Source: Candidatus Kapaibacterium sp. (GTDB lineage: Bacteria > Bacteroidota > Ignavibacteria > Kapaibacteriales > UBA2268). From it: a stretch of DNA of 64,000 bases. The DNA is taken from the NCBI GenBank assembly GCA_965140345.1, contig OZ223198.1, positions 327,809 through 391,808 of the forward strand, read 5' to 3'. Of this stretch, positions 5,101-61,966 are shown piece after piece. Positions within the stretch are counted from its first letter, which is position 1, and each line of letters starts with the position of its first letter. The position numbers and the translations under genes were made by a program. The notes under the pieces are model-generated. The model saw only the letters and a list, made by a program, of their open reading frames with translations, was not told the DNA's origin and did not search any database.

Positions 5101-5827
5101 CATATACCTGTTTGAGATTACCCATTGAGTCTACAACAGTTTTGAAATTTTGTCGTGTCTCGGGCGCAATGTTCCCGATAGATGCAGCAGTTTGTTGTGC
5201 TTGTGTTTCTAATTGTTTGAGTTCCTTTTGCTCATCGGAAGTTAAACCTTCTTTTGTATTTTTCGATTGCAGAACAGATATTTTAGTTTGCAAGTCTTCA
5301 TAAGAGGATAAGTATTCTTTAAAGGATTCTTCTTTATCTATCCGAACTTTAACTTCCATTCCTTTTTCTAATGATTCAGTTAGTTTTTTACCTTCATCTT
5401 CAAAATTAGCAGCTGCAATTTCACTAGCAAATTTATCGTTAAATGCATCTGCTGCACCTTCACCTACATTCCCGAAACTTTCCATAGCTCCGCTAAAGTC
5501 TAAAGTTAGAAGTTTACCAATACCCTCAATTGCCGGTACTATGAAAGTTTTAATTGACTCATAAACTGCCGTAGCTCCAGAAGATATTACTTTCCAAGCC
5601 TTATTAAAAGCTTCACGAACAGGCTCTACATTTTGATAAAGAAGATACATTGCAGTGGCAATTCCAGCGACTCCCAAAGCTATCCAACCAAGCGGTGAAG
5701 CAAGAAATACTGCATTAAGAGCTGTTTGCGCTGCTGTTAATGCACCGGTTGCCAGCGTTGTTGCTCCGGTAGATAAAGCAACAACTTTTTGTGTTACTGA
5801 TTGTCTTAAATTTGCTAAAGAAAGTGC
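2183..5827 (-). CDS. tail tape measure protein, C-terminal portion (gene split by IS insertion)
   Basis: The ORF track gives a 1164-aa ORF from a TTG at 5677. The same frame is open up to 5854, and native phage sequence resumes at 5827, the IS boundary. The protein is very long, Lys/Glu-rich and coiled-coil, with a hydrophobic Gly/Ala-rich segment near its N end and a C-terminal region after the coiled coil. These are typical TMP features. Confidence 0.7.
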   Translation of the reverse strand, partial: ALSLANLRQSVTQKVVALSTGATTLATGALTAAQTALNAVFLASPLGWIALGVAGIATAMYLLYQNVEPVREAFNKAWKVISSGATAVYESIKTFIVPAIEGIGKLLTLDFSGAMESFGNVGEGAADAFNDKFASEIAAANFEDEGKKLTESLEKGMEVKVRIDKEESFKEYLSSYEDLQTKISVLQSKNTKEGLTSDEQKELKQLETQAQQTAASIGNIAPETRQNFKTVVDSMGNLKQVYDININKAKEFANANKSGSELAEQAKIYSKSLEEQVRIIDKQKDHLDDLKTRINKANDPEIKQKLIDKYQEEISAVNANKQALVDSFEKGGKAGLLTEKAISKIAKQLNITSDEAKKMLLAKELEEISKKGEISQETLDKLADKYGVARTKATEIKNEQQKITEETKKTDAAAKNWGDTLSSIGSLQKEAKEKALKAQLDYNKGIIDEAEYTKQVNEAQKQLKVANDEAKIVNQSIHDLKKSGIDLTAVEIKQEEKKAKVKKESKESEYAIAKKRFELNNQIAEEANKEAKLDEELAILKLGRLKTEIEVQEDKVEEVTKASVEAERQLKAYQELYSIAKKQYDIESRKGKVSANTKKDYEEAQKVVAEYSNKLKEAQLVELKTKVQLKLDEDQARKEAEKIYQQMEKTELEYKISIGLKAESDKLKYDLNTVESQITTLTEELNTEIALGAKSDPKRIAELKIELQNLELELVQISSDLKKKLREEDIKSINDFAERERQLALFNAEKIFEDRLNQARGNYALEFQAFEELQLAKEEADKKYLLNTSRLYRNTSIFTSALQFDFSQSNSETEAIQEKDDQLKASLSNFEKERDALRDQLKSKEISVKDYYKNLEKLQAEHNKESEKLAKEKADLEAKSSNNVGKAIAKALEESSKQSLAAAKASSKKLIALTSRQSKTDQRLKSKQSQIESAIAKKDFKLKSTLEEDLAKLKQEEHDLEIARVEEKSEMYADFGVTTGTMFASMIANGESFQKAFAKTAISALKSLVPVYIAEITAKAFAQNPILGAVIAAGATATVLGLVSVAESSLGFRKGGKVPGGQKRITINEEGEEFVMNDKSTSTNEADYEVLNRTNLPLKDYIFKYRTDITKEISHQAVFESDELVQLQKNVIVQSLVNDRDKEVISELREQNRILKEENAKTRDLLKENIKETKRLKGYIKTRINVQVSGTMTADNRSVTGTIDKSKQAALRRM
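5820..5827. repeat. target-site duplication GAAAGTGC (left copy) of the IS256-family element
   Basis: The identical 8-mer is found at 5820-5827 and 7346-7353, immediately outside the imperfect terminal inverted repeats. Confidence 0.6.
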
Positions 5828-17965: not shown

Positions 17966-18892
17966 CTATGATCTTGCTATTACGTCTTTTAGAAGATATG
18001 CTGATTCAGCACCTACAATCTTGATGTCATAGTTTGTGGTGCATCTAATTACTTTTATCTTGCCACCATTTGTATTATATGTATCTACAAATGGGTGACC
18101 TTTTTTACGAAGAGTATATCCAAAAGAAGGCTGATAAGGTGTTTTAGCCATACCGGAATTTGGTACTTTATAAAACAATACTAGATTGTTGCCCCAGATA
18201 TCTTTAAATGTTTTTTTATCTTCTGAGTAGATAGCTTCACCAACTAATATTTCATTTACTTCCAAGAGTCTTTTTAACAAATCTTTGGTAACTATACCTG
18301 TTTGTGAATACTTGATTTTTTCAATAATTAGTGGATGATTTACAAGTACATCATAAACAGCCGGCCCCATTACCAATGTATTTGCTCTTGCTCCAATAAT
18401 ATCTCGAAGTGCGTTCCTCTTTTCTCGAATCAAAATTGTTGGATCAATACCTGAATCATCCAATTGATTATCTACTAGTGTTTCTTTGTTGGAGTCAGCA
18501 TAATTATCCGCATCTTGCAGTAATTCCGCAGCTTTTAATTCATGGCCTAGAGATAAAACATCTTTTGTTCTTCGAGTAGCTAAAACTTTCTCGTTCATAA
18601 AAGATTCTTTTTCTTCTCTGTAGTCAATCCTACGTTCTATGTCATGTTCTTCAGTAGAATATTTAATTGTACTTAAAAAGTCTCCGTCCATCTGATTTGA
18701 ATCGGCTCTAATAGCTCTTTCTGTCTTGTATGACATAAAAGACTCTTTACCAAACTGAGGGATTTTGCCGGCTTCTTTTTCTACATCTACTGTTGGAAAT
18801 ATCTGTTCACCAATGAATGCAGAATTATGATAGCCTCTTGCAATATTAGTCAAAATTGGGTCTACGACTCTAGCTTTATCTAAATGTCCCAT
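17966..18892 (-). CDS. major capsid protein (Mu gpT-like)
   Basis: 308 aa. Directly downstream of the protease/scaffold gene (ATGA overlap at 18892). Size and context are those of Mu-like major head subunits. Confidence 0.55.
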   Translation of the reverse strand: MGHLDKARVVDPILTNIARGYHNSAFIGEQIFPTVDVEKEAGKIPQFGKESFMSYKTERAIRADSNQMDGDFLSTIKYSTEEHDIERRIDYREEKESFMNEKVLATRRTKDVLSLGHELKAAELLQDADNYADSNKETLVDNQLDDSGIDPTILIREKRNALRDIIGARANTLVMGPAVYDVLVNHPLIIEKIKYSQTGIVTKDLLKRLLEVNEILVGEAIYSEDKKTFKDIWGNNLVLFYKVPNSGMAKTPYQPSFGYTLRKKGHPFVDTYNTNGGKIKVIRCTTNYDIKIVGAESAYLLKDVIARS

Positions 18893-20079
18893 TACTTACC
18901 AGTCTCCATTACTTTGTACAGGGCTTCTTCATATGTCACACTATTTCCTTTGCTTTTTTCTGCAGCCATATAGTCTTTTACTTCTTTGTCCAATACCAAT
19001 GCATCTTCGTCTACTTCATGACCATTATAGTCTTCTAGTGAACCGGCTAGTTCCCTCTTAGCAACTCCCCTAGGAGTTTGTTCATGGTATTTAAATGCAA
19101 CCGGGAAGGATGTAATAAGATCTTTGATTAGTTCAATACCTGATTTTTTGACCTGTGAATCATTTTCCGAGAAAGATATTTCTCCATTCTGGTGTCCCAT
19201 CTCCATTGCTGCAATAAGTAAGTCTTGCTGTGCCGGAACTATTTTTCCTTCTCGAATCAAATCTTTTGCAAAAGAGTTGTATTCTGAAAGCCTGTTCCTT
19301 AATTCTAGTCTGTGTACTTGCTTTTCTAAAGCCAGTACCTCTTCTGATTTGACAGGTGGTTTTTCTTGAAAATCTATTTTGGGAATAAGACTTTCAAATA
19401 TACCTGCCATCTTACCTGCTATTTCCTCCGAGAAATCAGCTTTCACTTGTTTCGTAAGCTCAGCTATTATCTCTTTAGCGTTCATGTTGCCATCCTCTTT
19501 GTTTTTAATTTGATTTTGTATTTCTTCTAAGCGGGTATCGTTTTCAGATTTGTAGTTATTGATTCTACTCTCAATTGCTGTGTTGATAAGAGTTTGCACC
19601 TGTTGCTCGTTTAGAGTGCTTGATTCGTAATCGATGTAATTACCATTATTTTCACTTTCAAAACTTTGCATATTGGCAGGTTCTTCAGAGAAGTCAACAT
19701 CTTCAAGACCTTTTACAGCAGGAGCTGCTGCACCAAGGAAACCGATATGTCTTAAATTATAGTTGCCATCGAGTGATATTGATCTCTTTTTGTAGTGTCC
19801 TGCTTTTACCCATTCAACAAACTGAGGAGTCAGTTGTTTTAGTTTTGCTAGGAGAACATCTCCTTGGCGCTTCAGAGTTTCTACCCAACCAAATGCAGGA
19901 GCATTAGTTTCAGGATGACCAATTACGATTGGAGCCTCATGTTTTTTGTCTTTTGCTTGATTATTATAGTTTTCTACAATTTTATCAAGATCTGAATTTG
20001 TCCATTCTTTCGTATTCCCTGCCGAATCTGTTTGTTTTCCGGAGCGAAAAACTTCAATCCAACTGTTTTTTAATAGCAT
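18892..20079 (-). CDS. prohead protease / scaffold fusion (Mu gpI-like)
   Basis: N-terminal IVIGHPETNAPAFGWVETLKRQGDVLLAKLK...GHYKKRSISL resembles the Mu-like prophage I protease family. The C-terminal half is a charged coiled coil, i.e. scaffold-like. Confidence 0.5.
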   Translation of the reverse strand: MLLKNSWIEVFRSGKQTDSAGNTKEWTNSDLDKIVENYNNQAKDKKHEAPIVIGHPETNAPAFGWVETLKRQGDVLLAKLKQLTPQFVEWVKAGHYKKRSISLDGNYNLRHIGFLGAAAPAVKGLEDVDFSEEPANMQSFESENNGNYIDYESSTLNEQQVQTLINTAIESRINNYKSENDTRLEEIQNQIKNKEDGNMNAKEIIAELTKQVKADFSEEIAGKMAGIFESLIPKIDFQEKPPVKSEEVLALEKQVHRLELRNRLSEYNSFAKDLIREGKIVPAQQDLLIAAMEMGHQNGEISFSENDSQVKKSGIELIKDLITSFPVAFKYHEQTPRGVAKRELAGSLEDYNGHEVDEDALVLDKEVKDYMAAEKSKGNSVTYEEALYKVMETGK

Positions 20080-21641: not shown

Positions 21642-22179
21642 ATATCAAATGAAACAAGAAACAATTAAACCTTGGGAAAGACAGCCAAAAGAGAGCATAA
21701 AAGCTTATGAAGCTTTTTGTAGATATAGAGATATGGGATATGGCAGAACACTAAAGAAGGTTGCGGTTGAACTTGGTAAATCGCAACAAAATATGAATAT
21801 GCTGTCTATGAAATGGGATTGGGTCAAAAGGACACAAGCCTGGATAGATGAATTAGAAAAAATAAAAGCTCAAGCTCAAAAGAAAGAAATAGAAGATATG
21901 GTAAAAAGACATTGCCAAGAATCTATGCTCTTTCAAAAGGTACTGACACTTCCTGCAGAGGCACTAATAAAAGAACTGAAGAAAGATCCTGAATCATTTA
22001 GTAAAATTCCTATACCGGCTTTATTTGAAAAAGCTCTTAAATCTGCAAATGTTCTTTCCAGTATCATTGACATAGAACGTAAGTCTCGAGGTGAACCTGA
22101 CTCGATCAGGCAAACAGATGTCACTTCGGGTGGTAAAGAGATTGTTGTAATTAAACCTGTATTCGAAGAAAAGAAATGA
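21625..22179 (+). CDS. terminase small subunit (putative)
   Basis: 184-aa ORF immediately upstream of TerL. HTH-like region (KAYEAFCRYRDMGYGRTLKKVAVELG) typical of small terminases. Confidence 0.5.
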   Translation: MKKLNKYQMKQETIKPWERQPKESIKAYEAFCRYRDMGYGRTLKKVAVELGKSQQNMNMLSMKWDWVKRTQAWIDELEKIKAQAQKKEIEDMVKRHCQESMLFQKVLTLPAEALIKELKKDPESFSKIPIPALFEKALKSANVLSSIIDIERKSRGEPDSIRQTDVTSGGKEIVVIKPVFEEKK

Positions 22180-23480
22180 CATTTGATTTTTCTAATAAAG
22201 ATTTATTTAACCATGTATATTTGCCACTTCTTTCTGACCAAAATCGAATTAATATTTTATATGGAAGTAGAGATAGTGGCAAATCGGATTTCATTGCTCA
22301 AAAGATTATAATATCATTGCTAGAAGAAGAGTTTATGAGACTAATACTTTTGAGGAAATATTATGCATCCATTAAATCTTCACAGTTTCAAACAATAATT
22401 GATTATATAAATATGTGGGGGCTTCAAGAGCATTTCAAATGGAATGTTAGCCCCCTTTTTATAGAGTGTAAACTAAACGGGAATCAGGTCTTAGCAAGAG
22501 GCCTCGATAAACCTGATAATACAAAGTCAATTAAAGACCCTACTGCTATATGGTATGAAGAAGCCGATCAAATAAGTGAAGAAGCCTTTACCGAAGCTTC
22601 TCTTTCTCTTCGATCCTCTCGTGCAGTAAATTTGAAAGAATATATTTCATTTAATCCAAGACGCGAACAATCATGGATAAATAGAAGATTCTTTCCGAAC
22701 AAAGCTAGTTATGAGAATCCTGAAGGAAGATTCCATTTTGTCAAGTCTATTCAACCTAACGTTACTATCCTCCATACGCATTATCGAGATAATAGATTTT
22801 GTTCTCCGGAAAGAGCCCTGAATTTAGAATTACTTCAAAATATAGATGAAAATCTCTATAAAGTTAATGCATTAGGACTTTGGGGAGGAGCTTTAAAAGG
22901 TCTTGTATATACTCATTGGAAGATTACTGATGAGTTTCCAAATGGAGATACTGTATTTGGTTTAGACTATGGTTATAACAATGCTACTGCTTTAGTCGAA
23001 GTTAGATACTGTGATAAAGAGCTATACATCAAACAACATATTTATCAGACAAAACTTACTCATGCTGATGTTATTCATCAAATAAGTAATGAGTTTCGCA
23101 GCATAATAGGAAGCCATCCAATCTATGTAGATTCAGCTGAACCGGCTCTAATCAAGGAGTTAAAGAAAGCAGGATTTATTGCCAAACCTGCGGTGAAAGG
23201 TTCTAATAGTGTATACGAAGGCATTATCAAATGTAAGGAATTAGCCTGGAATATTCATTCTGATTCTATCAATATACTTGAAGAAGTTGAAAGTTATATA
23301 TGGAAACGGGATTCGGATGATAATGCAACTGATCAACCAGTGAAGATTGATGATCATGCTATGGATGCTATTCGGTATGTAGTTCACACTTACGGTACAA
23401 AGTATTGGCTAAGAAGTCAAGGAAAAACAAGTAAGAGATTAAGACAAAAAAGAGAAAGAACATCATTTTCAAATTTTTAG
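22176..23480 (+). CDS. terminase large subunit
   Basis: Walker A-like ILYGSRDSGKS. C-terminal RNaseH-like nuclease motif DDHAMDAIRY. 434 aa. Confidence 0.85.
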   Translation: MTFDFSNKDLFNHVYLPLLSDQNRINILYGSRDSGKSDFIAQKIIISLLEEEFMRLILLRKYYASIKSSQFQTIIDYINMWGLQEHFKWNVSPLFIECKLNGNQVLARGLDKPDNTKSIKDPTAIWYEEADQISEEAFTEASLSLRSSRAVNLKEYISFNPRREQSWINRRFFPNKASYENPEGRFHFVKSIQPNVTILHTHYRDNRFCSPERALNLELLQNIDENLYKVNALGLWGGALKGLVYTHWKITDEFPNGDTVFGLDYGYNNATALVEVRYCDKELYIKQHIYQTKLTHADVIHQISNEFRSIIGSHPIYVDSAEPALIKELKKAGFIAKPAVKGSNSVYEGIIKCKELAWNIHSDSINILEEVESYIWKRDSDDNATDQPVKIDDHAMDAIRYVVHTYGTKYWLRSQGKTSKRLRQKRERTSFSNF

Positions 23481-33268: not shown

Positions 33269-35602
33269 TCAAAATGCTGATTGTTGGTCTGCATGTCTTA
33301 CTCCTATACCAATAAAATGTTTCTTTTTTCCGTTACGTATTTCACTCTTTATGAAATCTTTTTCCTCAATACAAGCATAGAATTTTTTCTTGCCTAGAGG
33401 ATACTCTTTATTCTCATCGCAGAATTCTGCATATTTTTTATACAAATCAATTGCAACAACATATTTTGTAGATGCTATTTCGCAGCACTCATTCATAAAT
33501 TCGAGAACCTTGTCTTGTTCTTCCCGGTATTCCTGAGTAGCTTTAAGAACAGATTTGGGAGGTTTAAGACCATTTTTTTGATAATCCACCCATCCTTCTA
33601 TCACCCAGTTGAGGATACCACTCTTTTCTCGCTCGAAATCGGCCATTAATTCCTGTTGTGGGCGTCTTTCTGCCTCAGGTATGGTTACGGTGAAGGGAAT
33701 CATACAAATACGCCTCCAGATGCCTGCATCTGTCCCTTTGATGTTTGGTTTATGATTGCCATAAATCCAAAGAGTGTGCGTAGGTATAAATTCAAAGAAT
33801 TCCTTATGCAAGAATCTTCCTAGAATAGGGTCACCACCTGTAAGATCTTTTACTTTATTTTCGTTGAATGCCTTGTTCTCAGGAAGCTCTGCAGCAGTTA
33901 CCAAACGTGCAGCAGGAAGACGAGCTATGTCGTTCGGAATAGAATCATTTTGATTTACCATTAGCATTTCAGTAGGAGCTTTTTGGAAATAAGTTCCGAA
34001 TATCATTTTCAGGACATTGAAGAAAACAGATTTACCATTCTTACCCGTGCCGTAACAGAAGAAAAGTACTTCTTCAAGATGAGCTCCGCACATTGTAAGT
34101 CCTAGGGCTCTCTGGACAAACTTGATAAGTTCTATATCCTGGTTAAATATTGTTTCCATTGAGTCTTCAAAAGAATAACATTTTGCTTCAGGATCATAGA
34201 AAGCTTCACTTACTTTAGAGAGCATTCTAGTTGATTTGTGAGGTAGAAACTCATTAGTTTTTAGGTTGTAAGTACCATTTTGAGTGTTGAATAAATAGTT
34301 ATTCTGGTCAAAATCAGTTTGAAGGCAAGCGACATTACTTTCTTTAGAGGCTAAATCCAGTAATGCACTTATTGAGTTTCTGGACTCTGATTTAGAAGCA
34401 TGCTTAAAAAGATTTTGCTTCTTCTCTTCGCTATGAAGTCTGGTAAGTTCATCATACATATTCCGTACACAGCTTTTTGCATAAGCATAAACTTCACCTT
34501 TAAGAGCTGCATCCCAATATTTCCCATTCCAAATGTGCCATTTACCGGAAGTATGATTAAAGCGAAGGACATTTTTATACGCATCAACAAAACGTTCAGC
34601 ATTACCCATATCAGTATTCTGATATTCTTTTTCCTGAGTAAGCTTATTAATAAGAGAACCGTTATTCGTAACCTCGTACTTTGAGTAATGGCTGTCTGGG
34701 AAAAGTATGGATGTATCAAAACCATAGTTCTTAGCATGATAAACAACAGTACCTATCCCAAATTTTTCCCCACGGTTTTGTATTCGGTACTTCGTTCCTC
34801 TTTCAGTATCCGGACTCCATTCGTCTATAAGAGAAATAGCAGTAGCCTCATCAAAGTAATTTCCTACTGCGGAGACAATACCAAACCACTCGATGTATTC
34901 CATTTGCGCAGGGATATGAGAAAGCATTTCTGCAACTTGTTCTTTTGTTAGATTGCCATTTAAGCCACGCTGTTTATATTCTTTCTGTTCAGTTTCTCTT
35001 TTATCTTTTTCGATTTTGATAGCATCAACCATAGCTTGGCTGAGAGTATTATCTCCGTAAATATGATATTTACAATCTTTATTACCGTAAGAAATCCTTT
35101 CAATGTTTTTGCAAGAAGGATCAGCACCATATTTATCTATGAGACCGGCAGCGATATTGAAATATTCATTTGCATCAGTAACTCTGTTAGTAAAAGCGAA
35201 AACTATTCTCAAGCGATGATGATCTTCTGTGTGAGAAGGTGTTGTATAAATAAACAAAGCATTTTTACGAAGCCAGGAGTCGTTTATACAGTTTTCCCAG
35301 GATAGGTAACCGTTACTTTCAGTCTTCTTAGATTTATCGTACTTTTTTGTATCTTTGTTATAGTGAGAAACGGTATTATCAATGTCTATAGCTATTAGAT
35401 CAGCCCCCACGATATCACTCGTAGAGGGCTTTTTAACAGACGCTTTGGGTTTGAGAACACCGCCGGTGAAGGCGATCCCTTGAGATACGTGATTGAGAAT
35501 AGACTGAGCGTCCAACTTAACCTTTACCCATCCCGGACTTCTTGGGTCACCTTTACCGATAATATTTTTATTTATACTAAGTTCGAATTCTAAATTCTTC
35601 AT
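33269..35602 (-). CDS. DNA primase-helicase (PrimPol/D5_N + P4-type C-terminal helicase)
   Basis: 777 aa. Walker A CYGTGKNGKS in the C-terminal NTPase typical of the phage/plasmid primase P4 family. Confidence 0.8.
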   Translation of the reverse strand: MKNLEFELSINKNIIGKGDPRSPGWVKVKLDAQSILNHVSQGIAFTGGVLKPKASVKKPSTSDIVGADLIAIDIDNTVSHYNKDTKKYDKSKKTESNGYLSWENCINDSWLRKNALFIYTTPSHTEDHHRLRIVFAFTNRVTDANEYFNIAAGLIDKYGADPSCKNIERISYGNKDCKYHIYGDNTLSQAMVDAIKIEKDKRETEQKEYKQRGLNGNLTKEQVAEMLSHIPAQMEYIEWFGIVSAVGNYFDEATAISLIDEWSPDTERGTKYRIQNRGEKFGIGTVVYHAKNYGFDTSILFPDSHYSKYEVTNNGSLINKLTQEKEYQNTDMGNAERFVDAYKNVLRFNHTSGKWHIWNGKYWDAALKGEVYAYAKSCVRNMYDELTRLHSEEKKQNLFKHASKSESRNSISALLDLASKESNVACLQTDFDQNNYLFNTQNGTYNLKTNEFLPHKSTRMLSKVSEAFYDPEAKCYSFEDSMETIFNQDIELIKFVQRALGLTMCGAHLEEVLFFCYGTGKNGKSVFFNVLKMIFGTYFQKAPTEMLMVNQNDSIPNDIARLPAARLVTAAELPENKAFNENKVKDLTGGDPILGRFLHKEFFEFIPTHTLWIYGNHKPNIKGTDAGIWRRICMIPFTVTIPEAERRPQQELMADFEREKSGILNWVIEGWVDYQKNGLKPPKSVLKATQEYREEQDKVLEFMNECCEIASTKYVVAIDLYKKYAEFCDENKEYPLGKKKFYACIEEKDFIKSEIRNGKKKHFIGIGVRHADQQSAF

Positions 35603-35605
35603 ATG

Positions 35606-36097
35606 TTAGCTCCATAGCAATTCTTGAGCTGCCTTGGTTAAGTTATTTCTCTGTATAAATTTCTTTTTGATGTTTTCAGGGAAGTCTTGGATATCGACAT
35701 TATCTAAATACCAGTCGTATTCCTTAGCTGTTACCTTCCGTTTCTTCTCTTTCCTTTTTTTTGCCTCTAAATCTCTCACAGCGTTTTCCAGCATGCTAAT
35801 CGACTCATCAGTCATCTTCGCCTTAAAAAGCTTGGCAAACTTCTTTTTGAGAGCAATTGAGGACATCTTTTCAATACCATGATCTATAATGACTACTTCT
35901 CCTCTCGGACTTCGCCAACATTCCTTACCTGCTTGTAGATGTTTGATGTAAGGCTTGAGATTCATTCTGTCGTCAAACTTCTTTTCAATAGTTGAAAGGT
36001 AGACATTAGTCATAGTCATTAGTAATTCTTTGGCCATTACAATTCTTTGATATTCAGAGATTTGTTCGGCAGTCGGTTCGAATATTGTTCCTTGCAT
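35606..36097 (-). CDS. hypothetical protein
   Basis: 163 aa, basic C-terminus. Confidence 0.35.
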   Translation of the reverse strand: MQGTIFEPTAEQISEYQRIVMAKELLMTMTNVYLSTIEKKFDDRMNLKPYIKHLQAGKECWRSPRGEVVIIDHGIEKMSSIALKKKFAKLFKAKMTDESISMLENAVRDLEAKKRKEKKRKVTAKEYDWYLDNVDIQDFPENIKKKFIQRNNLTKAAQELLWS

Positions 36098-36109
36098 TTT
36101 GGATCATCC

Positions 36110-36559
36110 TTAGTATTCAATTTCTTCTTCTTCATTGTACTCTATTTCGTTACTAGGCAGAAGTTGATAAACTACCTCTTCAGCTTCTTCTTCTTGATCA
36201 GATGATTCATCATCCTCATCAAACATGCTTCTTTGTTCTCCTACTGGAATAGGGCATTGTTTAATCAATTCATTAGTTTCAGCATTGTAGAAATAGCGAA
36301 TATTGTTTTCTTCATCATCTTCTACTTTGCATTCAATTTCCCTCATCTCATAACCGAGTTGAATTTTGAGAGATATTTCTGATATGTTTTTTTCTTTCTC
36401 TTTAATTTGAGAGCTGAGGTAGCTATTAGAGTTTTTCTTTTCTGATTCGAGTTGAGTTCTTTCTTTTATCTCGTCACTTATTTTATGAGCGAGTTCATTG
36501 ATTTCTTCTTGAGAATATTCATATTTATGATCAATAGTAGTTCTCATTATCATCCTCAT
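36110..36559 (-). CDS. hypothetical acidic protein
   Basis: 149 aa, highly acidic C-terminus. Confidence 0.35.
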   Translation of the reverse strand: MRMIMRTTIDHKYEYSQEEINELAHKISDEIKERTQLESEKKNSNSYLSSQIKEKEKNISEISLKIQLGYEMREIECKVEDDEENNIRYFYNAETNELIKQCPIPVGEQRSMFDEDDESSDQEEEAEEVVYQLLPSNEIEYNEEEEIEY

Positions 36560-41384: not shown

Positions 41385-41828
41385 ATGCAATATAAAATAT
41401 TGTTTTATACAATGCAAATTATTTTTACAAATATTCAAAAATATTTTATGACACAGTTCGAAAGATTAGAAAAAGTGGCTAAGTTGCATTTTGGCTCATT
41501 AGCTGGTGTGGCTAGATTGTTAGATAAAAAACCTCAATCATTTTATTCTTATAAAAGCAGAGATAAATTTGGTGAATTACTAATTCTACAATTGGCTGAG
41601 ATTGGTATAAACCCCAAATATATCACTGATGGCGAAGAACCGATGCTTCTCGAAAGCAATAAATCTCCAAAGAAGAAACCCGAACCGAATGTAGCATCAG
41701 TAGACTATGTAGAAATGATAGAGCTTCCTGACATAACAAAGATGAGCCCGGAACAGATGCGCAAATGGCGGGAAGCAGCTTTAAAAACGATTGATAAAAT
41801 AGATAAGATTTTGGAGGTTTTGGGGTGA
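41385..41828 (+). CDS. HTH transcriptional regulator (cI/Cro-like); likely start at ATG 41448
   Basis: LEKVAKLHFGSLAGVARLLDKKPQSFYSY is an XRE-type HTH. Divergent from the minus-strand regulatory genes. Its stop overlaps the next start. Confidence 0.5.
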   Translation: MQYKILFYTMQIIFTNIQKYFMTQFERLEKVAKLHFGSLAGVARLLDKKPQSFYSYKSRDKFGELLILQLAEIGINPKYITDGEEPMLLESNKSPKKKPEPNVASVDYVEMIELPDITKMSPEQMRKWREAALKTIDKIDKILEVLG

Positions 41829-42688
41829 GTAAAAAAACATTAGAATCAGATGGAATGAATTATGTTAGCATTGAGTTCGTTTGCCCAATATGCAATTATA
41901 AGAATATTGAGTCTTATATAAACATTCCAGCTGCTAAAACAATTGATGGGGGGACATCGCAAAATTTTACTGAAATGCTTTGTTCTAATTGCTTATCTTG
42001 TTACGGAATCAATATTATTTTATCTGAACATGGTGAAACTATTTTAGATATTGATCCTGATGTCGAAGGGCTCACAATTCTTGCTTATCACAGTGATATT
42101 ATCAATACATTTAGTAAAACCAATCAAACTTCAAGAATCTTTATCTATGAAGATTCTATAGAAAATCTGGAAAAGTTGAAAGAAATTGCTAATGTTACTT
42201 TGGAAGATGAATTAAATTTCGTGATTCTTCAGATGACTTTTGCACAATCCTTGACAACTCTTGAAAGTTATCTGTATAAGACTATCTCCTATAATATTAA
42301 CAGTCATGCTGTATTTCTTAAACGATTTGTTGCATCATATCAGTTCCCAAATAACAATCAACACAAGCTTAGCTTTAACAAAATATTTGAAGCGCAGAAA
42401 TGGATGCAGGGCATAATTGATGGCTTGCTTCAGAACCAGATATATCATAGACTTGATCAAGTCAACAAATTGTATGAGGCAGCTTTTGGCTTTAAACTTC
42501 CTGAGTATAGCAAAATTGACGACATCATCAAACTAAGACATGATATAGTCCATCGTAATGGAGAAACTAAAGACGGAGAAAAGATCAATATCACTCCGGA
42601 TGAACTCAAATCAGCAATAGACAGCATAGAAGAATTCATTAAGGCCACTGAAGTAAAGGTGCAGAAAGCTGTTAAAGATCTAGCATAA
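41825..42688 (+). CDS. zinc-ribbon protein with C-terminal HEPN-like R-x4-H motif (candidate toxin/abortive-infection effector)
   Basis: N-terminal CPICNYKN...CSNCLSC (4 Cys). C-terminal KLRHDIVHRNG fits an Rx4H motif. Translationally coupled to the HTH regulator. Confidence 0.4.
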   Translation: MSKKTLESDGMNYVSIEFVCPICNYKNIESYINIPAAKTIDGGTSQNFTEMLCSNCLSCYGINIILSEHGETILDIDPDVEGLTILAYHSDIINTFSKTNQTSRIFIYEDSIENLEKLKEIANVTLEDELNFVILQMTFAQSLTTLESYLYKTISYNINSHAVFLKRFVASYQFPNNNQHKLSFNKIFEAQKWMQGIIDGLLQNQIYHRLDQVNKLYEAAFGFKLPEYSKIDDIIKLRHDIVHRNGETKDGEKINITPDELKSAIDSIEEFIKATEVKVQKAVKDLA

Positions 42689-42856
42689 GATAACTTATTA
42701 GAAATTGTCAACTCGTTTAGATTAGCTCTATCTTAAATTTATAGTTAATACTATCCCTCTACTTGCAAAATATACTTGCAAATTCTTTCTAAAATACCTA
42801 ATATTATAAAAATGAACATGATATTATAAATTCTTGTCACAACTGACAAGAATTTA

Positions 42857-43111
42857 TTGCTGTTTTGGACAATTATTATATCATCCACTTTGATAAGGCA
42901 TAAAACTTTGAAATATCTAAAAACTTTACTTTTAGTCCTTTTGTTCGGTATAATTAGCTTTTCTTGTGAAAGTAGCACATCAAATGAAGACAATTCAAAT
43001 AATGTCAAAACAGGGACAACATCTACTCAGTGCTTAGGGATAACTGAAGATGGAACACGGTGTGAGCGCAAAACCACAGATCCTAGTGGTTACTGTTGGC
43101 AACATAAATAG
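42857..43111 (+). CDS. small lipoprotein with C-terminal Cys/His tail motif (...C-x6-C-x-R-x-T-x-DPSGYCWQHK)
   Basis: Lipoprotein signal (LLFGIISFSC), an S/T/N-rich linker, and a terminal CLGITEDGTRCERKTTDPSGYCWQHK nearly identical to the C-terminus of the nuclease at 44184..45125. Confidence 0.55.
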   Translation: MLFWTIIISSTLIRHKTLKYLKTLLLVLLFGIISFSCESSTSNEDNSNNVKTGTTSTQCLGITEDGTRCERKTTDPSGYCWQHK

Positions 43112-43128
43112 AAATCTTACATAAACAT

Positions 43129-44181
43129 GTGGATCAACTGATGAAGATCAAAAAATATGCTGTAATATTTCTGAGCTTAATTTCTTTCTATGCAATTCTT
43201 AACCTGTTAGTATTTTTTGAACATGAGCAAAATGAAGCTTTAGAGACTATATGGGATGCCATATGGTATTTCATAATAACTATTTCTACAGTTGGGTATG
43301 GAGATGCTTATCCTGTGACATTAGGAGGTAAAATCATTGGAACTATCATAGTTCTATTGAGTGCTGGATTTCTAAGTGTTATCATTGGTAAAATATCTTA
43401 TAGTTTATCAGAAATTGGGAAAAAAAAGAAAATGGGATATTACGGAACAAAGTTTGAAGATCATGTGGTAATAATTGGTTGGAATAATTTTACCAAAATG
43501 ATAGCAGAAGAATTGTTAGAGGCAAATCAACGAATTGCGATCGTAATAGATGAAAAGAGCCATATAGATAGTATCTATCAAAAGTATAAGAGTTTTGAAA
43601 AGAACTTATTTTTACTATGTGCAGAATATGATGACTATGAGACTTTTGAAAAAGTTAATATTAGTAAAGCAAAGATTGTACATCTAGGTCTAGAATCGGA
43701 TTCTGCTGAATTGGTAGCCATAATAAATCTAAAAAATATTTATGGAGATCTCAAATTTGTTGTAATCCTGGAAGACAAGTCCTTATCCCAAACTTTTAAA
43801 GCTGCCGGGGTAACTTACGTATTGTCGAAAAATGAGCTATCATCTAAGTTGTTAGCTAGCTATATATTTGAACCTGAAGTTGCAGATTTCACAGTTGATT
43901 TATTATCCAAGGCAGTAGACGATGATGACTTTGATATCCAGCAATTCAGAGTTATAGAATCTAACCCTATGATAGGTAAATCTTTATCTGATTTAGTAAA
44001 TTTAGCTACTTCTGAAGGTGTAAAAACTTCAGTGATAGCACTTAAAAGGAAAGATCGCGATATCGATAAACTTCCATTACTTACTTCAGAGATCAAGTTA
44101 GGTGATATCATATTATTTATCAATAATTATTCAGCTCAAGAATTTATAACAAATTTGTTTAGAATTGAGCAGGGAATCTAA
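43129..44181 (+). CDS. K+ channel with RCK/TrkA domains (MthK-like)
   Basis: Two TM helices flank the selectivity-filter signature TVGYGD. A cytoplasmic Rossmann-like RCK region (HVVIIGWNNFTKMIAEEL) and a TrkA-C-like C-terminus follow. Confidence 0.85.
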   Translation: MDQLMKIKKYAVIFLSLISFYAILNLLVFFEHEQNEALETIWDAIWYFIITISTVGYGDAYPVTLGGKIIGTIIVLLSAGFLSVIIGKISYSLSEIGKKKKMGYYGTKFEDHVVIIGWNNFTKMIAEELLEANQRIAIVIDEKSHIDSIYQKYKSFEKNLFLLCAEYDDYETFEKVNISKAKIVHLGLESDSAELVAIINLKNIYGDLKFVVILEDKSLSQTFKAAGVTYVLSKNELSSKLLASYIFEPEVADFTVDLLSKAVDDDDFDIQQFRVIESNPMIGKSLSDLVNLATSEGVKTSVIALKRKDRDIDKLPLLTSEIKLGDIILFINNYSAQEFITNLFRIEQGI

Positions 44182-44183
44182 TA

Positions 44184-45125
44184 ATGCTTAGATATTTACT
44201 TTTTATAAAGATTCTATTTTTACTACTCTTTCTTCCCAATAGCTATTCTTCAGAGCTCATAGGAATTAATTCAAATACTGAATTCGGAATTCCAAAAGAT
44301 AAAGATTCTACGGATGATTTTATAATAGTAAGACCTCAATACACGCTGTCATACAATCATATTAAAGGAGTACCCAATTGGGTTTCCTATAATCTAGATA
44401 TGCATTGGATAGGCGATCAAGAAAGATATGATGGAAAATTCGTAAAGGATACAGTGCTACCTTTAGAGTGGCAAATCAGTCATGATGACTACACTAATTC
44501 TGGTTATGACCGTGGACATATGGTTATGAGTAAACAAAGGACTAAAAATGAAGAAGATAATTACTCAACATTCTACATGACCAATGTAATCCCTCAAACG
44601 CCAGATTTGAATAGAATCTTATGGCTTAGCCTAGAGAAATACTGCAATAAACTAGCTGTCGTTAATGATAAAGAACTTTACGTTATTACTGGAGGAATCT
44701 TCCATTCAGACACTACATTAAACAATGCCCGAAAAGTTGCAATTCCAGACAGTTGTTTCAAAATCATAATAGTTATGAATAAAGACGAAGGTTTAGATCA
44801 GATAAATGAAACAACAGAAACAATATCAGTAGTAATGCCGAATGCTTTTGAAATCAATGATAAAAATTGGAAGAATTACTCGACAAGTATCGATGCCATA
44901 GAATATTCCACAGGTTATGATTTTTTATCTAATATTCCTGATGAATTAGAAAACAAGATAGAATCAAAAGTTACTTATCAAAAAGAGATTCCGATTGAAA
45001 AGAAATCAGAAGTGAAGAAGGAAGTTCCATCGAAAACTGTAAGATGTAAAGGAAGAACAAAATCAGGAAGACAATGTAAAAGAATGACTAAAGATCCCAG
45101 TGGCTATTGTTGGCAGCATAAATAA
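44184..45125 (+). CDS. secreted DNA/RNA non-specific endonuclease (DRGH family) with C-terminal Cys/His tail
   Basis: Signal peptide. Catalytic SGYDRGHMV and flanking conserved blocks (NWVSYNL, NVIPQTP). Ends in RCKGRTKSGRQCKRMTKDPSGYCWQHK. Its start overlaps the channel stop (TAATG). Confidence 0.8.
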   Translation: MLRYLLFIKILFLLLFLPNSYSSELIGINSNTEFGIPKDKDSTDDFIIVRPQYTLSYNHIKGVPNWVSYNLDMHWIGDQERYDGKFVKDTVLPLEWQISHDDYTNSGYDRGHMVMSKQRTKNEEDNYSTFYMTNVIPQTPDLNRILWLSLEKYCNKLAVVNDKELYVITGGIFHSDTTLNNARKVAIPDSCFKIIIVMNKDEGLDQINETTETISVVMPNAFEINDKNWKNYSTSIDAIEYSTGYDFLSNIPDELENKIESKVTYQKEIPIEKKSEVKKEVPSKTVRCKGRTKSGRQCKRMTKDPSGYCWQHK

Positions 45126-47745: not shown

Positions 47746-48795
47746 ATGAAACAGACTTTGTATATTTTCATTTTATTAATATTTATTGGAATTGCCAGCG
47801 CTCAAGACCATAATTACGATTGGGTAAAAAGCGTGCATACAAGCTTAGGCGTGCCGGTGGATTCGGATACAACAGATGACTATATCATTGTTAGACCTCA
47901 ATACGTTGTATCATATAACCATACGAAAGGAGTTCCCAATTGGGTAGCTTGGGAGTTAAACTCGAGCTGGTATGGAGATGTAGAGAGACATACAGGAAAT
48001 TTTATTACAGATAAATCTTTGCCTGAAAATTGGCAAATAAAGCATAGCGATTATACCAATTCAGGATATGATCGGGGGCATATGGTGCGTTCTGAAGAAA
48101 GAACTGCAACAGAAGAAGACAATATATCAACATTCCTTTTAACAAATATTATTCCTCAAAGACCTAACCTTAACAGAAAAGTATGGTTGAAGTTCGAATA
48201 TTATTGCGAAGACCTTTGCAAAGAACAAAACAAAGAGTTATTTGTCTATTCTGGAGGTATTTATTTCGCAGATAGTACTTTGAAATCTGAAGGGAAAGTT
48301 GCAGTACCTGAATCATGTTTTAAGATTGTAGTTGTTCTTGAAGCAGATCAAAGCATAAATGATATTACAAAAGACACAGAAGTAATTGCTGTATTAATGC
48401 CTAATGATGACGAAGTAGGCGCTAACTGGGAAGACTATCAGACTACGGTTGACCAAATTGAGAGTCTAACTGGGTATGATTTTATGAGTTCAGTCTCAGA
48501 TGATGTTGAGAATGCTTTAGAAAGTGCTTCTACTTATATTGAAGAAACAGAGATCACAGATTTACTTAAAGTTTTTCCTAATCCAGTTCAAGATATAGCT
48601 ATTATTAATCTGCCTGTTGGGGAATACAAAAAAATTAAACTATGTGATTTAGCTGGACGCACTTACTCAATTTCTAATCTAATAATATCAGATGATTCAA
48701 TAAGCATTGACATTTCTAATCTTCCATCAGGGAAGTACTTTATAACATTTGATATCGGAAAAGAGGTGTACAGAGCTGAATTTTTGAAGGAATAA
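47746..48795 (+). CDS. secreted DNA/RNA non-specific endonuclease (DRGH family) with T9SS C-terminal sorting domain
   Basis: Paralogue of 44184..45125 (same SGYDRGHMV, NWVAWEL, NIIPQRP blocks). The C-terminus KVFPNPVQDIAIINLP...YRAEFLKE matches the Por/T9SS C-terminal-domain consensus. Confidence 0.8.
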   Translation: MKQTLYIFILLIFIGIASAQDHNYDWVKSVHTSLGVPVDSDTTDDYIIVRPQYVVSYNHTKGVPNWVAWELNSSWYGDVERHTGNFITDKSLPENWQIKHSDYTNSGYDRGHMVRSEERTATEEDNISTFLLTNIIPQRPNLNRKVWLKFEYYCEDLCKEQNKELFVYSGGIYFADSTLKSEGKVAVPESCFKIVVVLEADQSINDITKDTEVIAVLMPNDDEVGANWEDYQTTVDQIESLTGYDFMSSVSDDVENALESASTYIEETEITDLLKVFPNPVQDIAIINLPVGEYKKIKLCDLAGRTYSISNLIISDDSISIDISNLPSGKYFITFDIGKEVYRAEFLKE

Positions 48796-49100: not shown

Positions 49101-50078
49101 TTAAAACATCGATTCATTATACGAGCTATAACCGACTTTTGTCATAATCTCAGCTAATACATCAGAGTCAATTGGCCATTCAAGGCTTAAAGTGTAATTA
49201 GCTGAATTCAAAGAATAGAGGATATATAGTATTATTGGTTGCTTAGAGAGATAAGAGTTGTTTTCATAGAAATATTCATCTAACTCTTCAGAATTTTCTT
49301 TTACATATGACTCTATTTTATCAATATCTAGCGGAATCTTTTCTTCAAGCTTGAAGAAAAGATCTGTTAGTTCGATATCTAAGCTATCTTTATCATAACT
49401 TGGGAATCTAGTTTGATAAAGCTTTGTTAGCTGAAGTAATATATTATTGTATTTTCTGTTTTTATTGCTCATCATAGTTTTAATTGAACAAAAATAATCA
49501 TCAGTAGCTTCTAAAAGGGCTATAGATTTTGAAAGATTCCTCAATATTTCTGGATCATTTCTAAATGGACCTTTATAAGTAGTGTCATGACTTACTTCTG
49601 CAAGTGCATGTTGTAAAACAGTCCTTATCTGTATTTCACAAGTAATGAGATCCTTATTGCTTCTATCATCCTTTGGTTTTACAACGATATGCACAGATTG
49701 GTAATCAAAATTTTTAGGATTTACAAATGCCTCTTCTTGATAGTTTCTACTTACCTGTATGTCGATTTTATCGCATGATTTGAGACAATTTAACAAATTA
49801 ATAACTGAAACAGAATGTAGAAAAATGACTCTAACGCCAACTTTATCTTCAATATCCTTAATGGGATCCACATAATCTTTACGTCTGTATAAAGCCTTCT
49901 TTATGAATGAGTCGATATCCTTAATTCTTGGTTTAGATACAAGTTTTATATCAGCACTCAATTCAGAATCTGCCGAAATAATCTCACAAAGCACATTAGA
50001 AACATAGTTTCCCCATTTTTCTAATTCGTTCTTTATTGAGTCAAATTCACTGACTAACTGACTGATCTTGTCCTTCAT
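49101..50078 (-). CDS. RelA/SpoT-domain nucleotide pyrophosphokinase, synthetase-only (SAS/toxSAS-like) with a roughly 120-aa C-terminal extension
   Basis: Motifs in canonical order: KPRIKDIDSFIKKALYRR, IEDKVGVRVIFLH, DYQSVHIVV, CEIQIRTVLQHALAEVSHDTTYK. No HD hydrolase domain. Confidence 0.75.
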   Translation of the reverse strand: MKDKISQLVSEFDSIKNELEKWGNYVSNVLCEIISADSELSADIKLVSKPRIKDIDSFIKKALYRRKDYVDPIKDIEDKVGVRVIFLHSVSVINLLNCLKSCDKIDIQVSRNYQEEAFVNPKNFDYQSVHIVVKPKDDRSNKDLITCEIQIRTVLQHALAEVSHDTTYKGPFRNDPEILRNLSKSIALLEATDDYFCSIKTMMSNKNRKYNNILLQLTKLYQTRFPSYDKDSLDIELTDLFFKLEEKIPLDIDKIESYVKENSEELDEYFYENNSYLSKQPIILYILYSLNSANYTLSLEWPIDSDVLAEIMTKVGYSSYNESMF

Positions 50079-51133
50079 CCTCTTTTTGGCTTACCTTTAA
50101 TTTTTAAAACTGTATAATTTGGATTATCTATATCCAAAGTCTCTAATTCATCTTTTGTTGAAATGACGTTGACATTTAGATTGAAATTGTTATTAGGTCC
50201 TGAAATTACAACATTGTCGTTAAATTTCATACTGTCTTTTTCAATTTTCTTTTTGAGAAGTGTTGAATCCTTGGTAAAAGACAAAGGAAATTTTTTCAGT
50301 ATTTCCTCATGATATTGATCTAAGACTTCGATTTCGTCAGAGAAACACTTCTCTCCAAAAAGTTTGGGATTAAGTATATTTTGTTGATTATCTAGCATTT
50401 CTGCTTTTAATAAATTTGAGGCACTTGTTTTTTTTTCCCAACTACTTAACTGAGTATCAATGAAATTAGAAGTGCTATTATAAAACTCTTGAGATAATAA
50501 TTTTGAATTTTGAGAAGCATCAAAACCCAAGAAATCTTTATAGAAATAAGTAGCTGGAAAAGAATCTAGTCGAAATTGATCATCAAATAAATATGCACTA
50601 TATTCTGTTTCTATTTCTGTCTGCCTTTTTGATAATATACCAATTTTGTATAGCTTTTGGGATGGACTTAAGAATATGTCGCTTATCTTTTTAAGGTGCA
50701 ACTCTCCTTCCTTAGCTAAAGCGGTATGTAATTCAGCTTTAATAACAATGTATAATAATTGTAAACTCAATGGGTGCTTCGCTTCAATAATTATTAGATA
50801 ACCTCCAGGGATATTGCTTTTTGTTTGACTACTTGCTAATAACTCTGCAATATCTTTAGAAGATTCAATAAAATCATTATCTTCTAACTGTTCCAGTTTG
50901 TGACATATATCAAAAAAGCTCCCATCTTCTTTTTCCTCGATCTCTAGTTCAAAGGCTCTTGAATGCTTCCCAGCTGCATCAACTAGCCTTGTTTTAATTA
51001 AATCTTCAACATCATTCTCCATTAAAATTAAAGATTCAGAGGTGATTGTTTTTGCATGCTGTTCATTTGGTTCCTTCTTGAGTATCTCATGCATTATTGC
51101 TCTTGAAATTTTGATGTTTTTGTAATTGGTCAT
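50075..51133 (-). CDS. nucleoid-associated protein NdpA/YejK (NA37) family homologue
   Basis: N-terminal ISRAIMHEILKKEPN matches the YejK pattern INQIALHQLIKRDEQN. Further resemblances are GGYLIII (cf. GGFVLF), DFLGF (cf. DFLGA) and C-terminal TVLKIKGKPKRG (cf. TLTIKGTPPN). The comparison is against YejK recalled from memory. Confidence 0.55.
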   Translation of the reverse strand: MTNYKNIKISRAIMHEILKKEPNEQHAKTITSESLILMENDVEDLIKTRLVDAAGKHSRAFELEIEEKEDGSFFDICHKLEQLEDNDFIESSKDIAELLASSQTKSNIPGGYLIIIEAKHPLSLQLLYIVIKAELHTALAKEGELHLKKISDIFLSPSQKLYKIGILSKRQTEIETEYSAYLFDDQFRLDSFPATYFYKDFLGFDASQNSKLLSQEFYNSTSNFIDTQLSSWEKKTSASNLLKAEMLDNQQNILNPKLFGEKCFSDEIEVLDQYHEEILKKFPLSFTKDSTLLKKKIEKDSMKFNDNVVISGPNNNFNLNVNVISTKDELETLDIDNPNYTVLKIKGKPKRG

Positions 51134-60742: not shown

Positions 60743-61966
60743 CTAATCCCAAGCCTTAAAAGCTTCTTTTACATCACTCTCAGCAATTTTAACATATTTT
60801 TGAAAAGATTGTCTCGATTTATGACCGGTAACTTTCATCACCGTTTCGGGAAGTATACCTAACTTCAAACTCAAAGTGATGAATGTTCGCCTAGCAGTAT
60901 GAGACGAAACTAGTTCATACTTTGGAATAATCTCTTCCTTTTTTGCACCGGCAATATACTTAGTTATTTTTATATCCTCACTTATACCTGCCAGTTGACA
61001 AAGTTTCTTGATATTTAGATGATATCTGGCTTTTGATCTGAATTGTATTGACTCAATAGGATGTTTCAAAAATATCTTGAAGAGTTTGCTAACTATTGGA
61101 ATAGTTACTTCTTCAGATGTTTTTTGAGTAGTCAATCTTATTTCTCTATTCTCCATATCTACATTCATTGGGCTAAGCTTCATAATATCTGATTGTCTTA
61201 AACCTGTATAGCATTGAATTAAAAAATAATACTTGCTCCAAAGCAATTTTTCAGTTTTTCCGGATAGTTCAAGCTCTTCTAATTTTTCTAATTCTTGGGT
61301 AGTCAATACTATCTTCGATGCAACTTTGTTTTCAAAAGAGAAGAATTTGTAATCCATGGATGTATTAATCTTTTCAATATAAGCGTAACTACAAATAGTC
61401 TTTATAAACTTAATATGTGAATGTATATATCCTGTGCTTAGATTTAGAGTATTTAAATATCTAATTAGAGACAAGAAAAATGGCTCATTGATATCATTGA
61501 ACAAAATTTGAATTTGTTGATCCTTCTCGAATCCTACAAGATTTTGATAAAGTTGATTATAAGTTTTAAGTGTATTGGAATTAAACCGATTGCCTCTTTG
61601 AGTCAATGCCTCTCCAGTTGCAAATCTTTTCAATAAATTTTCTGTATACTCTATAAAAGTAGTAAAATCACTCTGCTTTTTATTTAAAAAAGTCTTTAAT
61701 TGATGTCTTGACAGACTACCTATACCATGTTCCTCTTCCACCCTATTTACAAATCGCGTTATAGAACTAATCTTTTTATCTATCTGAGCATTCTTTTCAA
61801 AATGATTTTTTTCTCTCGTAGAAATCCTTTTGGTTCGTTTGCTAAAGTTTGCTGGATTAATACTAACACCAGAAGAAATCTGAATCCTAAACCCATTCAT
61901 CGCTATATTAAGCATTATAACCGCTTTGTTGTTTTTGACAGATAAATATGGAGATATTCTAACCAT
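60743..61966 (-). CDS. tyrosine site-specific integrase (Bacteroidetes phage/CTn type)
   Basis: C-terminal catalytic region with HTARRTF, GHKS and terminal Tyr-containing block. 407 aa. Last gene before host mla genes. Confidence 0.8.
   Translation of the reverse strand: MVRISPYLSVKNNKAVIMLNIAMNGFRIQISSGVSINPANFSKRTKRISTREKNHFEKNAQIDKKISSITRFVNRVEEEHGIGSLSRHQLKTFLNKKQSDFTTFIEYTENLLKRFATGEALTQRGNRFNSNTLKTYNQLYQNLVGFEKDQQIQILFNDINEPFFLSLIRYLNTLNLSTGYIHSHIKFIKTICSYAYIEKINTSMDYKFFSFENKVASKIVLTTQELEKLEELELSGKTEKLLWSKYYFLIQCYTGLRQSDIMKLSPMNVDMENREIRLTTQKTSEEVTIPIVSKLFKIFLKHPIESIQFRSKARYHLNIKKLCQLAGISEDIKITKYIAGAKKEEIIPKYELVSSHTARRTFITLSLKLGILPETVMKVTGHKSRQSFQKYVKIAESDVKEAFKAWD

Follow-up and report, generated by a model that had tools for sequence, protein, structure and literature searches.

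Introduction

The WRC domain (PF08879) of the plant GRF transcription factors contains a zinc finger with three cysteine ligands and one histidine ligand (CCCH), spaced CX9CX10CX2H, which binds one zinc ion with a Kd of approximately 14 nM, unfolds without zinc and contacts DNA via residues around the second cysteine (10.1101/2025.01.03.631214). The same spacing is given in GRF reviews. The zinc finger ZnF1 of Mcm10 is part of a surface that binds single- and double-stranded DNA without sequence specificity (PMC5333062). Here we analyse a stretch of 64,000 nucleotides from Candidatus Kapaibacterium sp. (contig OZ223198.1, positions 327,809 to 391,808; hereafter the window), in which two proteins, a putative lipoprotein of 84 residues (the mini-lipoprotein) and a nuclease of 313 residues (nuclease 1), end in a common tail of 25-26 residues. 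As judged from its profile matches, this tail is one copy of the catalogued, uncharacterised Pfam family DUF5763 (PF19067), and its sequence and predicted structure suggest a minimal single-zinc CCCH finger of the structural class of the WRC and Mcm10 fingers. We favour, with a probability of about 0.55, the reading that the tail folds on its own as a zinc finger at the end of a flexible linker, and that its most likely ligand is nucleic acid, bound in a sequence-independent manner.

Results

The two tails of the window

The first tail copy occupies positions 43031..43108 (+ strand) at the C-terminus of the mini-lipoprotein and reads CLGITEDGTRCERKTTDPSGYCWQHK up to the stop codon. The second, at 45045..45122 (+), reads CKGRTKSGRQCKRMTKDPSGYCWQHK up to the stop codon of nuclease 1. 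Both share the ligand spacing C-x9-C-x10-C-x2-H, followed by a lysine and the stop. A preliminary description, made from the DNA sequence alone, had counted C-x6-C for the first interval, which is a miscount; its view that both proteins terminate in a zinc-knuckle-like C/C/C/H module agrees with our data. So does its proposal that the two proteins share a homologous tail: in a BLASTP comparison of the lipoprotein with nuclease 1, the alignment was confined to the last 31 residues, 17 of which were identical (55%; E=6e-12). A six-frame regular-expression scan of the window revealed exactly these two copies (43031-43105 and 45045-45119) and no third. The final ten residues are the same in both tails, and their ten codons differ by four synonymous and no non-synonymous changes. 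Since the tail DNA has diverged at synonymous sites, the similarity reflects conservation of the peptide, and an origin of the tail pair by recent duplication or gene conversion is ruled out.

On their common scaffold the two tails display opposite electrostatics. The lipoprotein tail has a net charge of 0, within the lowest 5% of 276 tail instances from related proteins, and the nuclease 1 tail one of +7, within the top 4%. The main charge differences are E6/D7/E12 in the former versus K6/S7/K12 in the latter, and where the nuclease tail has basic residues, at positions 2, 4, 6, 12 and 16, L, I, E, E and T are found in the lipoprotein tail, which nevertheless retains an R-C-E-R-K core. The triplets ending in the second cysteine are T-R-C and R-Q-C, compared to a family consensus of G-x-R/Q-C.

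Assignment to DUF5763

The mini-lipoprotein matched DUF5763 with 29.4 bits (cut-off 26.3), and its isolated tail with 33.1 bits. The tail of nuclease 1 scored 15.5 bits, which is below the cut-off, yet it retains every conserved position of the family. Thr5, Gly8 and the basic R-C-K/R-R core pattern of DUF5763 are present in both window tails, which end at position 28 of the 39 profile positions, one residue past the histidine. The tail had previously been described as unnamed and possibly as a new sorting tag; because it is a catalogued domain, the finding fails as such. A match to a well-described domain with established function had been named as the result that would refute the proposal, and what was found is a catalogued domain, without established function, whose nearest characterised relatives, WRC and Mcm10, bind DNA. 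Our search for literature on DUF5763, PF19067 or HGGxSTG found none.

Two NCBIfam families overlap with the tail over approximately the first 26 positions of their models and are defined by extra sequence that the window tails do not have. GvpO_arch_Nterm (NF045806) was matched over these positions by the lipoprotein (E=8.9e-8) and by nuclease 1 (E=1.9e-4), both below the curated cut-off of 52. Neither window protein matched HGG_STG (NF041373) at E<=0.1; its matches were confined to relatives, of which a single one, P0006, exceeded the cut-off (49 bits versus 29). The tail was also compared with the C-terminal domain (CTD) of the type IX secretion system (T9SS). Neither the lipoprotein nor nuclease 1 matched Por_Secre_tail (PF18962) in the Pfam scan, and a CTD is a beta-sandwich of approximately 75 residues, compared to 26 residues for the tail. 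A T9SS CTD is thus ruled out, as the preliminary description had stated; a genuine one is present on nuclease 2, described below.

Predicted fold and kinship with CCCH fingers

We scanned 130 single tail instances one by one against Pfam, counting cross-matches at E<=0.01. DUF5763 was matched by 95 instances, zf-TRM13_CCCH by 18, zf-primase/Mcm10 by 15 (best E=5.9e-6), WRC by 13 and zf-C3Hc3H by 5. Because single instances cross-match these families, the tail module belongs to a group of CCCH fingers of the same spacing. Structure prediction of the tail alone, which had been suggested as a check, was confident: AlphaFold2 modelled the 30-residue tail from the alignment of the 130 instances with a predicted local distance difference test score (pLDDT) of 94.6. 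A Foldseek search of the PDB with this model returned only four matches, all to the zinc finger of the Mcm10 internal domain (7Y01, 3EBE, 3H15), with query-normalised template modelling (TM) scores of 0.72-0.80, root-mean-square deviations of 1.5-1.9 Å and E values of 2-8. Independently of the structural comparison, a search of the PDB sequences with the tail profile placed the four ligands on this very segment of Mcm10 (E=4.8). Neither result is significant alone, and the two agree with each other. Among the viral models of BFVD, 165 proteins matched the tail model at E<=10, with TM scores of up to 0.94 and identities of up to 50%; these were mostly giant-virus HNH endonucleases, RING proteins and 'Zn-finger proteins'.

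The tiny, cysteine-rich module could alternatively be a metal-free, disulfide-stabilised knot, as might suit the oxidising location of exported proteins, or a peptide that sequesters or delivers zinc, in either case with no role in nucleic-acid binding. We regard this as highly improbable, given the odd number of cysteines, the near-invariant histidine, the spacing shared with the zinc-dependent WRC finger, and the use of the module elsewhere in cytoplasmic or nuclear proteins.

Architecture of related proteins

The preliminary description had proposed a profile search for the domains that carry the tail. We built a hidden Markov model from three tails (alignment A3) and searched 1.84 billion cluster representatives, of which 1673 matched at E<=1e-3 and 183 at E<=1e-10. 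A word-index search with a 45-residue tail alignment recovered a single protein, P0001 (P numbers denote related proteins and L numbers related loci). Architectures were counted for 151 proteins, comprising the best 150 of the 1673 and P0001; partner domains were determined by a Pfam scan of the best 150. At least two tail copies were found in 121 of the 151 proteins, with a maximum of seven by regular expression and eight by HMMER, and the exact spacing C-x9-C-x10-C-x2-H occurred in 275 of 324 instances. Thr5 and Gly8 are near-invariant across the family, the R/Q-C-K-R core is strongly conserved, and the 25-residue tail carries a mean net charge of +3.6. Export-like N-termini were present in 119 of the 151 proteins (79%), 12 of them lipobox-like, and the last copy ended at most three residues from the C-terminus in 109. 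In 36 export-like proteins, however, the first copy begins within 35 residues of the N-terminus, right behind the signal peptide, and several relatives possess extra domains downstream of the last copy.

These architectures bear directly on the suggested sorting tag, i.e. a secretion signal read by an export machinery. Such a signal would agree with the extreme C-terminal position of the tail and the signal peptides of most carriers, and with the presence of either a tail or a T9SS CTD on the paralogous nucleases of the window. It is the explanation least compatible with the tandem arrays of two to eight copies, with copies that directly follow a signal peptide or lie internally ahead of other domains (PBCV_basic_adap, an Ada-like module), and with the occurrence of the module in fungal-like, i.e. 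eukaryote-like, and giant-virus proteins. Moreover, no conserved transporter gene adjoins the tail genes in the inspected loci. The sorting role is therefore unsupported, and we give it very little credence.

DUF5763 was found by the Pfam scan in 132 of the 150 relatives. Nucleases were the most frequent class of partner (Endonuclease_NS in 25 proteins, PLDc_2 in two, SNase and HNH_5 in one each, and T5orf172/MUG113 in two fungal-like proteins, P0003 and P0021). Further partners were PBCV_basic_adap (four proteins), SH3_3 (four) and Peptidase_M48 (two). In several tail-bearing nucleases (among P0004, P0011, P0018, P0099, P0133 and P0092) the basic motif TGPRGGKYYINSxGKKxYIKKK (PBCV_basic_adap) lies past the last finger, which shows that a terminal position of the finger is not obligatory.

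A second His/Cys module, (V/I)Y(V/I)TxxGxKYHxxxCxxL...(P/A)CxxCxPP, accompanies the tail in exported proteins (P0015, P0016, P0133, P0144, P0145, P0072 and, at the C-terminus, P0008; also L001, 2253-2612). It matched no Pfam family significantly, the best weak matches being Ada_Zn_binding (E=6e-5) and DUF6233 (E=4e-4). Proteins of the P0152/P0006 family, encoded at L005, L006 and L007 in several metagenomes, consist only of a signal peptide and four fingers joined by K/A/E-rich linkers; their genes adjoin an HTH_19 gene and large glycosyltransferase genes. These secreted four-finger proteins may be extracellular polyvalent DNA binders.

The basic composition of the tail also admits an explanation by retention in the envelope: the finger would bind an anionic surface polymer, such as lipopolysaccharide, capsule or another glycan, and keep exported enzymes on the producing cell. 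The export-like N-termini and the mostly terminal last copies fit this idea, as do the peptidases and SH3_3 domains that occur among the partners besides nucleases and the lack, in nuclease 1, of the T9SS CTD of nuclease 2. On the other hand, nucleases dominate the partner list; the module is also found in fungal-like T5orf172 proteins, giant-virus HNH proteins and archaeal GvpO-type N-termini, where there is no bacterial envelope to bind; and the mini-lipoprotein, already lipid-anchored by prediction, has an uncharged tail. We judge retention to be unlikely.

Nuclease 1 and its paralogue

Nuclease 1 (44184..45125, +) is composed of a signal-peptide-like, cysteine-free N-terminus, an Endonuclease_NS core (residues 35-253, with the DRGH motif; Pfam E=1.2e-50), a flexible K/E-rich linker and the zinc-finger tail. 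The AlphaFold2 model of the full-length protein, based on an alignment of 20 sequences, had a mean pLDDT of 83.1 with a confident core. Linker residues 271-278 fell below 50 and tail residues 281-313 reached 82-93; because this low-confidence linker separates tail and core, the model suggests a self-contained tail, like a bead on a string. An exact look-up of nuclease 1 yielded no record, and a scan of genome contigs found two relatives of 29% identity, in metagenome-assembled genomes of Flavobacteriia and Bacteroidota. Phage GenBank contains many Endonuclease_NS nucleases, none with an alignment extending through the tail of nuclease 1.

The paralogous nuclease 2 (47746..48795, +), which is 46% identical to nuclease 1, carries a T9SS Por_Secre_tail at residues 276-340 (E=1.1e-9) in place of the zinc finger. 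Within the alignment the two nucleases are mutual closest relatives, yet their C-terminal modules differ, which from sequence comparison is typical domain shuffling.

The mini-lipoprotein

The open reading frame (ORF) of the mini-lipoprotein (42857..43111, +; 84 residues from the first TTG) consists of a leader, a candidate lipobox cysteine, a linker rich in S, T and N, and the zinc-finger tail, in line with the earlier account of it as essentially a lipid anchor plus linker plus this tail. The hydrophobic leader reads ...KTLLLVLLFGIISFS-C (...LLFGIISFS-C), and the codon of the cysteine predicted to be lipid-modified (...IISFS-C-ESSTSNED...), as read from the sequence, lies at 42965..42967 (+). 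Leader and cysteine are consistent with a putative Bacteroidota lipoprotein. The ORF has no in-frame ATG, and TTG codons at 42857, 42890 and 42908 are candidate starts. A hairpin at 42826..42857 (+), with a 14-bp perfect stem (ATAAATTCTTGTCA-CAAC-TGACAAGAATTTAT) and a T-rich run behind it, ends exactly at the first of these; it may be the terminator of the upstream HEPN gene or an operator. Its position suggests that the real start is probably TTG 42890 or 42908.

The same order of leader, lipobox, linker and tail recurs in P0001, P0097, P0107, P0139 and P0140 and at L011 and L012, with lipobox-like endings among the homologues such as LLSC, VSSC, LSSC and ATGC. Neither of the two starts tried gave an exact match to the mini-lipoprotein in the sequence collection, and PHROGs contained no match to it. 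The predicted mature protein has a net charge of -2, and the tail of its close relative P0139 one of -3; the tails of many other mini-lipoproteins reach +5 and equal the nuclease tails in basicity.

This charge pattern raises the question of a protein interaction, in which the uncharged or acidic finger of the lipoprotein would pair with the basic finger of nuclease 1, or with the nuclease itself, and so dock the enzyme at the membrane or keep it inactive. The window tails differ chiefly at charged positions and are identical over the last ten residues, and the two tail genes lie in one apparent operon, as two adjacent tail genes do at L001. However, the shared DPSGYCWQHK is a mere subfamily consensus, many mini-lipoprotein tails are as basic as those of nucleases, and two tail genes occurred together in only two of the 12 inspected related loci, besides the window. 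We therefore consider such a pairing quite improbable.

Genomic setting and phage association

The window represents, to a large part, an integrated phage, and both tail genes lie in its accessory region. Its first 41 kb contain phage genes, among them a 1164-residue tape-measure-like ORF (2183-5677), a head protease (18892-20079), a terminase (22176-23480), a primase/helicase (33269-35602), an exonuclease and a methylase. From 41 to 62 kb follows an accessory island of lower GC content that holds a regulator, a HEPN gene, the run of lipoprotein, K+ channel, nuclease 1 and a 482-residue membrane protein, a 280-residue secreted protein, nuclease 2, RelA_SpoT-like and NA37 genes, an S24 peptidase, a helix-turn-helix (HTH) protein and, at its end, a tyrosine integrase (60743..61966, -), which is probably the distal boundary of the integrated element.

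The K+ channel gene (Ion_trans_2, TrkA_N and TrkA_C domains; 43129..44181, +) lies between the two tail genes and stops 3 nt short of nuclease 1. The gene directly upstream of that of the lipoprotein encodes a RiboL-PSP-type HEPN protein (41825-42688; E=1.9e-10) with an N-terminal CxxC...C motif. Further downstream, a RelA_SpoT-domain gene (49101-50078, -) and the gene of an NA37 nucleoid-associated-protein homologue (50075-51133, -) overlap by 4 nt; the former matched the PADLOC candidate system PDC-S33 (E=5.9e-13), and the two may constitute a defence or toxin pair of the island. PADLOC gave no match for the lipoprotein, the K+ channel, nuclease 1, the two downstream ORFs or nuclease 2.

Related loci were searched with a three-sequence tail alignment. 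The gene of the P0001 mini-lipoprotein adjoins a second tail-bearing gene and lies approximately 3.5-4 kb from HTH_17 and integrase genes, just past which DnaB and PolA are encoded. At L009 a tail-bearing lipoprotein gene is located approximately 0.9 kb downstream of an integrase gene, with one gene of 206 residues in between. On the IMG/VR contigs L011 and L012, mini-lipoproteins display a leader, a lipobox, EKE, a T/P linker and a tail ending in His-stop, and the gene on L012 is 1.7 kb away from a terminase. DUF5763 mini-lipoproteins may recur as accessory genes among phages and prophages of Bacteroidota (the window; L001 and L009, both adjoining integrases; and the phage contigs L011 and L012). 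A search of phage GenBank with the tail alone yielded Prevotella phage Lak-A2, a single faecal phage contig and nothing else. The protein of megaphage Lak-A2 (L004, 1269-2111; MK250019.1, approximately 35469-36311) is a membrane protein of 280 residues with two hydrophobic segments that ends in ...IRCKAITHKGTRCSRKNQYDGYCWQHRK-stop; the genome of this megaphage is unannotated.

Discussion

Under the reading that the tail is a nucleic-acid-binding zinc finger, the +7 tail of nuclease 1 would capture DNA or RNA and hold it beside the catalytic domain of a non-specific nuclease that is exported, and the predicted lipid anchor of the mini-lipoprotein would set the same finger fold at the membrane. 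Zinc binding is suggested by the invariant pattern of three cysteines plus a histidine together with the experiments on WRC, nucleic-acid binding by the relatives and the partner domains, and an envelope location by the leader sequences. A role in nucleic-acid binding is further supported by the giant-virus HNH endonucleases of BFVD, which also carry the fold, and by exported homologues in which the tail occurs together with the Ada_Zn_binding-like module and the basic PBCV_basic_adap motif.

Several observations weigh against this reading. The charges of the lipoprotein tail (0) and of the P0139 tail (-3) are a poor fit to non-specific DNA binding; because it carries no net charge, the lipoprotein copy may recognise a more specific ligand or a partner's basic finger. 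Export of approximately 79% of the carriers, as predicted from their N-termini, would expose a cysteine-based zinc site to the oxidising periplasm or exterior. The terminal bias of the last copies (109 of 151) is explained by nothing beyond domain accretion. M48 and other peptidases, SH3_3 and PQQ_2 are partners without a nuclease function, the Mcm10 matches lack statistical significance (Foldseek E=2-8, profile E=4.8), and no literature was found on the function of any DUF5763 member. The preliminary description had also considered an anchoring or interaction tag; of this, the loose sense may still hold, i.e. a tether to a polyanion or to a partner.

The phage-linked mini-lipoproteins, which may place a CCCH finger of eukaryote and giant-virus type into the cell envelope, could together with the tail-bearing exported nucleases form an envelope-located system for nucleic-acid capture. 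We offer this as speculation and think it unlikely. Possible functions of such a system are superinfection exclusion, by interception of entering DNA, and the capture and scavenging of extracellular DNA; the uncharged lipoprotein finger could serve the basic finger of the nuclease as a specific partner or as a decoy.

What the analysis yields is a testable functional hypothesis for the unstudied DUF5763, as a minimal WRC/Mcm10-type CCCH finger that bacteria and phages attach mainly to exported proteins, above all to nucleases. Should zinc and DNA binding prove true, a function would be available for more than 1600 protein clusters, zinc fingers would be documented to work outside the cytoplasm, and the holding of substrate by some secreted Bacteroidota nucleases would be explained. 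The phage-borne mini-lipoproteins would then be candidates for a part in phage-host conflict or in the handling of extracellular DNA.

Among known systems, T5 Llp, Cor and the Rz1-type o-spanins are small outer-membrane lipoproteins encoded by phages, none of which, to our knowledge, possesses a zinc finger. The window lipoprotein resembles them as a predicted tiny mature lipoprotein from a prophage accessory region; it showed no sequence similarity to them in the PHROGs comparison, and differs in lying outside a lysis cassette and in having no adjacent i-spanin-like gene; on both counts, a role as o-spanin is unsupported. Compared to the tail, Mcm10 ZnF1 (zf-primase, PF09329) has the spacing C-x9-C-x11-C-x2-H and works fused to an OB-fold, in a protein that has neither a signal peptide nor tandem arrays. 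With the WRC domain, the window tails have in common the identical ligand spacing, the arginine before and the basic residues after the second cysteine, i.e. the region by which WRC contacts DNA, and a predicted beta-hairpin plus loop around one zinc. The tryptophan of the Trp-Arg-Cys triplet is absent from them (TRC and RQC), neither window protein matched the WRC model at E<=1, and they have no C-terminal helix or nuclear-localisation extension. Finally, WRC domains belong to nuclear transcription factors, whereas the tails are found on bacterial and phage proteins with the features of export.

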